NCBI RefSeq assembly: GCF_029227855.1
Contig: NZ_CP074356.1
Reading direction: 5' to 3' (one strand)
Origin: Escherichia coli
GTDB lineage: Bacteria; Pseudomonadota; Gammaproteobacteria; Enterobacterales; Enterobacteriaceae
DNA length: 64,000 nucleotides
Below the pieces are notes generated by a model, which did not search any database, had not been told where the DNA came from, and saw only the letters and a program-made list of their open reading frames with translations. Below are positions 26,591-29,341 of this stretch, in pieces (position 1 is the stretch's first letter; every line of letters starts with the position of its first letter). Both the position numbers and the translations under genes were made by a program.

Positions 26591-27321
26591 TGGTTGCCTC
26601 CGGAGCAGTTTGCGGTGATGCCTTTCCCGGGAATGGATTGCCAGTGCGGGGACTGTGGAGCTTAATTCCGGTGTTGGTGGCCTTTCCGTTGATTTTATGC
26701 CAACAGCCCCCTGTGACTGACAGGCTGCCTCGTCATTCCATTCGTATCTCCAGTAACAGGGGGTTGTATTGTATTTTATTGTGCCGGTTCAGGTGTGCGT
26801 TTCCCGGCGCGTCTGCACCGGCTTAACCAAATTCAACAGGGATAAAATAGTGGTAAGCGTACAGCCTGAACCGTCTGGTCAGAATCTGACGAATTAGACA
26901 AAGTGGTGTCCACCAAATAAGTAGTGGGAACCAAAGTGTCAGATATGCAGAAAAATGTGACTCCCGGCAGGTGAAAAGGCTGCCCTAATTATCCTCCCGA
27001 ATTTAAACAGCAGCTCGTTGCTGCCTCCTGTGAACCCGGGATATCCATCTCAAAACTTGCTCTTGAAAATGGCATTAACGCCAATCTGTTGTTCAAATGG
27101 CGACAACAATGGCGCGAGGGAAAGCTGCTATTACCTTCTTCAGAGAGCCCCCAGCTACTTCCTGTGACTCCCGATGCAGCTGCCGAACAGCCAGAATCGC
27201 TCGCAGAGGACCCGGAAACCCTCAGTATCAGCTGTGAGGTAACGTTCCGGCACGGGACGCTCCGCTTCAATGGCAATGTCAGCGAAAAGCTCCTGACTCT
27301 GCTGATACAGGAACTGAAGCG

Positions 27322-27669
27322 ATGATCCCGTTACCTTCCGGGACCAAAATTTGGCTGGTTGCCGGTATCACCGATATGAGAAATGGCTTCAACGGCCTGG
27401 CTGCGAAAGTACAGACGGCGCTGAAAGACGATCCCATGTCCGGCCATGTTTTCATTTTCCGGGGCCGCAGCGGCAGTCAGGTTAAACTGCTGTGGTCCAC
27501 CGGTGACGGACTGTGCCTCCTGACCAAACGGCTGGAGCGTGGGCGCTTCGCCTGGCCGTCAGCCCGTGATGGCAAAGTGTTCCTTACGCAGGCGCAGCTG
27601 GCGATGCTGCTGGAAGGTATCGACTGGCGACAGCCCAAGCGGCTGCTGACCTCCCTGACCATGCTGTAA
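27322..27669 (+). CDS. tnpB: IS66-family accessory protein TnpB
   Basis: 115 aa, MIPLPSGTKIWLVAGITDMRNGFNGLAAKVQ…. Confidence 0.8.
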   Translation: MIPLPSGTKIWLVAGITDMRNGFNGLAAKVQTALKDDPMSGHVFIFRGRSGSQVKLLWSTGDGLCLLTKRLERGRFAWPSARDGKVFLTQAQLAMLLEGIDWRQPKRLLTSLTML

Positions 27670-27721
27670 ATCTCTTTATCCTGGTTGTCACAGAATAAGC
27701 CCGGTAAAATACGGGCTTATG

Positions 27722-29103
27722 AACGAAATCTCTTCTGACGACATCTTCCTGCTGAAACAGCGCCTGGCCGAACAGGAAGCGCTGATCCACGCCCTGCAGG
27801 AAAAGCTGAGCAACCGGGAGCGCGAAATAGACATCTGCAGGCGCAGCTGGATAAACTCCGCCGGATGAACTTCGGCAGTCGTTCCGAAAAAGTCTCCCGC
27901 CGTATCGCACAAATGGAAGCCGATCTGAACCGGCTTCAGAAAGAGAGCGATACGCTGACTGGTAGGGTGTATGACCCGGCAGTACAGCGTCCGTTGCGTC
28001 AGACCCGCACCCGTAAGCCGTTCCCTGAATCACTACCCCGTGACGAAAAGCGACTGTTGCCTGCGGCGCCGTGCTGCCCGAACTGCGGCGGTTCACTGAG
28101 CTATCTGGGCGAGGATACCGCCGAACAGCTGGAGTTGATGCGTAGCGCCTTCCGGGTTATCCGGACGGTACGGGAAAAACATGCCTGTACTCAGTGCGAT
28201 GCCATCGTGCAGGCACCTGCACCTTCGCGGCCCATCGAGCGGGGTATCGCCGGACCGGGGCTGCTGGCCCGCGTGCTGACCTCGAAGTATGCAGAGCACA
28301 CCCCGCTGTATTGCCAGTCAGAAATATACGGCCGGCAAGGTGTGGAGCTGAGCCGTTCACTGCTGTCGGGCTGGGTGGATGCATGCTGCCGGCTGCTGTC
28401 TCCGCTGGAAGAGGCGCTTCATGGCTATGTCATGACTGACGGCAAACTCCATGCCGATGATACCCCGGTCCAGGTACTGCTGCCGGGTAATAAGAAGACG
28501 AAGACCGGGCGGTTGTGGGCGTATGTTCGTGATGACCGCAATGCCGGGTCAGCGTTGGCACCTGCAGTGAGGTTCGCTTACAGCCCAGACAGAAAAGGCA
28601 TCCATCCGCAGACTCATCTTGCTTGCTTCAGCGGTGTGCTGCAAGCGGATGCGTACGCCGGGTTCAACGAGCTGTATCGCAATGGTGGGATAACGGAAGC
28701 TGCCTGCTGGGCTCATGCCCGCCGAAAGATCCACGATGTGCACGTCCGCATCCCGTCAGCACTGACGGAAGAAGCCCTGGAGCAGATCGGTCAGTTGTAC
28801 GCCATAGAGGCGGATATAAGGGGAATGCCGGCAGAGCAGCGGCTTGCTGAACGTCAGCGAAAAACGAAACCGCTGTTGAAATCCCTGGAAAGCTGGTTGC
28901 GTGAAAAGATGAAGACCCTGTTCTTCGGCTCTGGCCATGGTGGTGAGCGGGGAGCGCTACTGTACAGCCTGATCGGGACGTGCAAACTGAATGACGTGGA
29001 TCCAGAAAGCTACCTTCGCCATGTGCCTGGCGTCATAGCAGACTGGCCGGTCAACCGGGTCAGCGAACTGCTTCCGTGGCGCATAGCACTGCCAGCTGAA
29101 TAA
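27722..29103 (+). pseudogene. tnpC: IS66-family transposase tnpC, frameshifted near the 5' end
   Basis: N-terminal frame (MNEISSDDIFLLKQRLAEQEALIHALQEKLSNRERE…) stops at 27866; the main transposase frame restarts at 27865 (MNFGSRSEKV…). Confidence 0.7.
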
Positions 29104-29341
29104 CACATCCCCGTCAATACGGCCCTCGCTGTACGCTTACTTTTGTTCGGACTGCTTATGGCCTTTTTCCACTGGTGGCGCAGGAAAGTTAACCGGCTGC
29201 CACCATGGGATGACGTGTAAACCGTGCAGGCATGTTTTCACGTGGTGACGCTTTCATTGGGGGTCTACGCCGGAACCCCAATATTGTTCACATACATGAA
29301 TTTGAAAAACTAAGCGATACTGCTGTCCGTACCTTATAAAC

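Follow-up and report, generated by a model that had tools for sequence, protein, structure and literature searches.

The question raised by this locus is whether an insertion sequence whose transposition genes look broken is really broken and, if so, whether it can still move. In the window (the whole 64-kb stretch of E. coli DNA that was analysed), a 2288-bp element at 26853-29140 (+) holds three frames, all on one strand, namely a tnpA-like frame, tnpB, and a tnpC that is split. The interruptions could reflect errors, programmed features of expression, or decay, and we evaluated them against reference copies, related transposases and a population sample of 5426 complete E. coli genomes.

We aligned the element with two references, the intact 2442-bp ISEc8 that lies beside the LEE in E. 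coli O157:H7 and the same-locus copy of E. coli 55989. Nucleotide alignment with the O157:H7 element gave two blocks, with 99.3% identity over 2070 bp and 98.7% over 224 bp, and both Pfam (PF01527, PF05717, PF03050, PF13005, PF13007, and PF13817) and NCBIfam (NF033819 and NF033517) recognised TnpA, TnpB, and TnpC. These results confirm the limits and the IS66-family membership given in the original prediction, and, judged by sequence, the element is specifically ISEc8, that is, the same element and not merely one of the same family. The modules recognised were HTH_Tnp_1 / IS66 TnpA, TnpB_IS66, and an IS66 transposase with leucine-zipper, zinc-finger, DDE, and C-terminal modules, such that the gene order tnpA (HTH), tnpB (TnpB_IS66), tnpC is present with tnpA and tnpC disrupted. 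The terminal inverted repeats had been described as intact, which held: they pair at 18 of 22 positions (82%), they are those of intact ISEc8, and the first 85 and last 111 bases of the element show no difference from a functional ISEc8 copy. The O157:H7 element, which is flanked by an 8-bp duplication (CAACAAAA) and encodes a TnpA of 126 aa, a TnpB of 115 aa, and a TnpC of 512 aa, shares with the window copy its inverted repeats, its tnpA-tnpB-tnpC order, its ATGA overlap, and an identical TnpB, whereas the window copy has a nonsense codon in tnpA and the TnpC substitutions R199C, D457G, and L488P, and is without the 8-bp duplication. The 154 bp by which the window copy is shorter than ISEc8 are made up of a 153-bp deletion and a 1-bp deletion. 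Scanned for promoters and terminators, the element yielded counts not above those of shuffled sequence.

Coordinates of the element's features and of its surroundings in the window.
Feature	Position	Strand	Remarks
Two tandem paralogous zinc-ribbon ORFs, partly overlapping, 135 and 173 aa (DUF7828 / Zn_ribbon_11)	25761-26590		Immediately left of the IS
IRL, starts GTAAGCG	26853..26874	+	22-nt imperfect repeat, identical to intact ISEc8
tnpA pseudogene (HTH_Tnp_1 accessory protein)	26945..27325	+	126 codons in reference; ends ATGA over tnpB start
Premature TGA, tnpA codon 10	26972..26974	+	Reference CGA (Arg10); C-to-T at 26972
tnpB, intact, 115 aa (TnpB_IS66 accessory protein)	27322..27669	+	Pfam, NCBIfam
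tnpC 5' fragment, 49 codons, ATG 27719	27719..27868	+	Ends TGA 27866-27868
Frameshift site, lone C where ISEc8 has CC	27832..27832	+	GACCAT to GACAT
Main tnpC frame, 412-aa ORF	27865..29103	+	TnpC residues 50-512 minus 401-451
TnpC codon 199, TGC (Cys)	28312..28314	+	Reference CGC (Arg); R199 invariant, 109/109 IS66-family transposases
Junction of 153-bp in-frame deletion	28917..28921	+	One CCTGT left; reference has two CCTGT 153 bp apart
IRR	29119..29140	+	Pairs with IRL; identical to intact ISEc8
Truncated DUF6404 remnant without N-terminus	29143..29220	+	Abuts right side of IS; annotation of identical copy
tRNA-Leu(CAA) leuX	58230-58314	-	Likely integration site of the island

Evaluating the individual frames, we found the TGA that had been predicted early in the tnpA-like frame at codon 10, counted from the ATG at 26945, where the reference reads CGA; in the three-way alignment position 26972 is T in the window copy and C in both the O157:H7 and the 55989 copies, and the frame is open again after the TGA up to 27325. 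At the ATGA overlap (27322-27325) the tnpA stop meets the ATG of tnpB, whose product accession, WP_000612591.1, is the same as in functional ISEc8 copies, and tnpB would have lost its translational coupling to tnpA. For tnpC, the original prediction of a frameshift with a stop at 27866 holds as far as the split frame is concerned, which is real and is called 'frameshifted' by NCBI PGAP in a 100% identical copy, but 27866 is the point at which the shifted frame runs out and the lesion itself lies at 27832, where both the O157:H7 and the 55989 copies have CC and the window copy has one C. The first 38 codons of the 5' fragment match TnpC, 37 of them identically (residue 3 is the exception, Glu versus Asp), and the remainder is out of frame; its TGA is overlapped by the ATG at 27865 with which the main tnpC frame opens.

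One rival reading would make the stop and the frameshift artefacts of sequencing or assembly, with the element itself intact, and the 1-bp deletion does sit in a run of two Cs, a context that certain sequencing platforms can misread. We searched the complete genomes with 42-mers centred on each lesion, for which an exact match cannot be seeded by unmutated sequence, and these revealed the TGA allele in 165 and the 1-bp deletion allele in 152 of the 5426, independent genomes in which every match was chromosomal. Seven records, which include the enterotoxigenic isolates F9792, F6326-C1, and B4103-1, are 100% identical to the window copy across all 2288 bp. Because the same alleles recur in this many complete genomes, the lesions are not sequencing errors, an explanation that we consider next to impossible, and the suspicion of error that had been raised for 27850..27870 is answered in the negative by the same counts.

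The original prediction had also named a programmed feature as the circumstance that would overturn it, and one could indeed imagine the tnpA stop being read through and tnpC being restored by ribosomal frameshifting, as in IS1 and IS3, elements of which are annotated in the same window and use programmed frameshifting. This we regard as having practically no chance of being correct: tnpA and tnpC are continuous in intact ISEc8 and in most copies at the leuX-island locus, the GACAT at the tnpC frameshift site is not slippery, and a passage in PMC3469429, citing Han et al. 2001, has IS66-family proteins expressed by translational coupling and not by frameshifting. Since the frames of intact ISEc8 are uninterrupted, the comparison with the reference refutes a programmed feature and the lesions stand.

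A third lesion, which the original prediction overlooked, is the main defect of the element, and the transposase would be defective even without the two point lesions. After 28916, 153 bp are absent in frame from both the window and the 55989 copies, which takes away TnpC residues 401-451 and with them Y413, G428, the block D433-N-N-x-x-E438-x-x-x-R442, and G447-R-K-N450. Domain matches are cut short such that the Pfam DDE_Tnp_IS66 match in the window TnpC covers profile positions 1-222 of 284 and the NCBIfam transposase match positions 4-294 of 387. Our conservation set came from a search with full-length TnpC against 1.84 billion representative proteins, from which 108 full-length relatives were aligned, so that 109 IS66-family transposases were compared in all, pairwise <50% identical. 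Across these, R199, D247, C330, H333, and R379 were invariant, followed by D311 (99%), E438 and N450 (98% each), and E364 and Y413 (97% each).

To place these residues we used an AlphaFold model of full-length TnpC (mean pLDDT 92.8), which has an RNase H-like layout with D247 on strand 1 (243-255), D311 just past strand 4 (306-309), and C330/H333 after strand 5, where they open a helical insertion of four helices (331-344, 348-367, 372-398, and 406-416); the next helix spans 435-451 and has E438 near its start. The closest solved fold to TnpC is that of ISCth4 (IS256 family, PDB 6xg8), which at 13% sequence identity has the same RNase H-like DDE core, a CxxH that opens an all-helical insertion, and a catalytic Glu on the following helix (PMC7780238). 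ISCth4 differs in belonging to another IS family and in having a single ORF without TnpA/TnpB partners, and we used it only for assigning catalytic residues. Our literature search found no published assignment of the DDE residues for the IS66 family. Because of the fold topology, the third catalytic residue is probably E438 rather than E364, which would give a predicted DDE triad of D247/D311/E438, and the deletion would then remove the last helix of the insertion domain together with the whole predicted catalytic helix. The window TnpC thus keeps D247 and D311 and has lost E438, an incomplete DDE domain that makes this copy a defective member of ISEc8 and not a non-member. R199C, D457G, and L488P are found in every deletion-form copy that we examined.

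We next consider where the element resides and how widely the deletion form is spread. It lies in the leuX island near the fecIRABCDE operon, with the DUF6404 remnant, a phytase-like esterase gene, IS fragments, and the fecIRABCDE operon to its right, and the window closely matches the chromosome of F9792. The element was found in thousands of records, and a 42-mer over the 153-bp deletion junction matched 2204 of the 5426 genomes at 2392 places, with a median of one copy per genome; all but about 110 of these places could be attributed either to the leuX-island locus or to the gene yehR (see below). The junction of the IS with its right flank was present in 2169 genomes, the window-type left junction (zinc-ribbon side) in 1757, and an alternative left junction, on the nanS/nanM side and with the same right flank, in 177. 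An 8-bp target duplication is absent in the window copy, where the left flank reads AAATAGTG and the right flank TTTTGTTC, and the alternative left flank taken from the other genomes, CTCTTCGGG, does not match that right flank either. Because neither left flank repeats the right one, these sequences imply that the left side of the IS has been rearranged at least once, which is what an IS-adjacent deletion or recombination between copies would give. The 55989 copy and those of ~2000 further genomes (2289 bp) have the same site, right flank, 153-bp deletion, and R199C as the window copy but retain open frames for tnpA (126 aa) and tnpC (461 aa); the TGA and the 1-bp deletion are extra in the window copy. 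Elsewhere in this region, the F9792 chromosome has an extra IS1 between an AriR-like gene and fecI (L001 17531-18363) that is absent near window position 32383.

Taken as a history, we are highly confident that the window copy is a vertically inherited, non-autonomous ISEc8 relic in the leuX island. An ancestral copy would have lost 153 bp of tnpC between two CCTGT repeats, with R199C arising in the same lineage; the deleted form would then have become fixed at the leuX-island locus in ~40% of E. coli genomes; and a sub-lineage that includes the window would have gained the tnpA CGA-to-TGA change and the 1-bp tnpC deletion. The three lesions are inherited, and they sit between intact repeats alongside an intact tnpB. 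Neither a functional TnpA nor a functional TnpC could presumably be made from this copy, which would be movable only if a full-length ISEc8 elsewhere supplied the proteins in trans and would otherwise act only as a homology patch for recombination. The predicted immobility unless complemented in trans is therefore supported, with the 153-bp deletion and R199C as added grounds.

The deletion form as such is not absolutely immobile, as a sister copy has transposed into yehR. This core gene is interrupted by a 2289-bp deletion-form copy in E2865 (L008 2957-5245) and in O103 RM8385 (L017), which has a perfect 8-bp duplication (GAACGGCA), all three frames open, the 153-bp deletion, and R199C, and which in RM8385 does not differ from that genome's own canonical-locus copy. 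The yehR junction was present in 82 genomes, EHEC, including the O26:H11 reference strain 11368 and O103 RM8385. Such a copy, duplicated target, open frames, and all, is what would be seen if the 2289-bp form were an autonomous short ISEc8 with an active 461-aa TnpC and the window copy were disabled by its two point lesions alone, a reading that we nonetheless hold to be quite improbable. With the deletion go the predicted E438 helix and the conserved G-R-K-N block, R199C is present in every copy examined, and the deletion form is single-copy in >2000 genomes, against as many as 10-20 copies for full-length ISEc8. Furthermore, we found no new insertion other than a single ancestral event in an EHEC clade, and the four yehR-carrier chromosomes with counts seen each hold 10-12 matches to the undeleted 153-bp segment. 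These observations suggest that the yehR copy moved by mobilisation in trans, which fits better than autonomous activity for the deletion form because one ancestral jump in helper-rich genomes stands against single-copy stasis in ~2000 genomes.

Extending mobilisation in trans to the deletion form as a whole, we offer tentatively, as a possible reading that we would stop short of calling probable, that it is a distinct, widely fixed non-autonomous ISEc8 derivative whose sole documented jump (into yehR, in O26:H11/O103 EHEC) was driven in trans by full-length copies. It resembles trans-mobilised non-autonomous IS derivatives in its intact ends, its defective transposase gene, and a sister copy with a fresh duplication in a lineage whose four checked genomes have many full-length copies, and differs from them in being nearly full length and not miniature, and in not being amplified (a median of one copy per genome). 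If true, this would be natural evidence that IS66-family TnpA, TnpB, and TnpC can act in trans on a defective element. Plasmid copies were also weighed as evidence for mobility and rejected: on the one inspected, pSF10EC-2, the same right flank as on the chromosome is found between two copies of IS1, which makes the element a passenger. Between its IS1 copies this plasmid (L007, IncA/C-type) carries the right-hand portion of the element along with the DUF6404 remnant and the phytase-like esterase gene, an arrangement suggestive of island DNA captured from the chromosome by an IS1 composite.

More speculatively still, the dead TnpC frame might stay open because its product inhibits transposition, i.e., a catalytically dead TnpC would serve as a regulator and dominant-negative inhibitor of ISEc8, in the manner of the Tn5 inhibitor protein or the P-element repressors. 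The 461-aa frame is open in most of the ~2200 carrier genomes, and its product retains the coiled-coil at the N-terminus, the zinc finger, and the greater part of the catalytic core. Yet the copies are ~99.7% identical, so that recent common descent would by itself account for open frames; of the substitutions that separate them from ISEc8, about half alter the protein (8 of 16 in the window copy), conserved residues among them; and the frame has been lost in >150 genomes without visible consequence, such that we judge retention as a regulator to be extremely unlikely.

No full-length ISEc8 helper was found within the 64-kb window. A solo ISEc8 left end of 82 bp lies at window 46382-46463, just downstream of virK and an lpxM paralogue, and matches bases 1-82 of intact ISEc8 at 100% identity; an IS3-family element (OrfA start MSRKTQRYSKEFKAEAV), which we take to be IS600-like, cuts it off. 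A target duplication sought between this solo end (46382) and the right flank of the main element gave no match. The F9792 chromosome has only two ISEc8 matches, one of which is the copy identical to the window's; the other is probably the solo 82-bp end, itself present in F9792, and no helper copy is visible on that chromosome.

Overall, this is a known element in routine decay, and decayed ISEc8 copies are common in E. coli genomic islands, so the locus has little import past correct annotation. That annotation does matter in one respect, as the 461-aa 'IS66 family transposase' annotated in ~2000 genomes probably names a protein that, on the conservation and the structural model, would be catalytically dead. 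In the literature on ISEc8 that we searched, the 153-bp deletion form is not described. For the leuX island, the three nested lesions are also handy lineage markers, and the yehR insertion is a hint that proteins of the IS66 family are able to act in trans. Finally, an Rfam search of the window returned matches away from the element: the ALIL pseudoknot, a frameshift stimulator, of an IS3-family (IS629-like) fragment at 53685-53801; the 3' domain, at 56328-56414, of a group II intron that comes after an ltrA reverse-transcriptase gene; and IS102 RNA at 18995-19231 (-), which adjoins an Ag43-type autotransporter gene.
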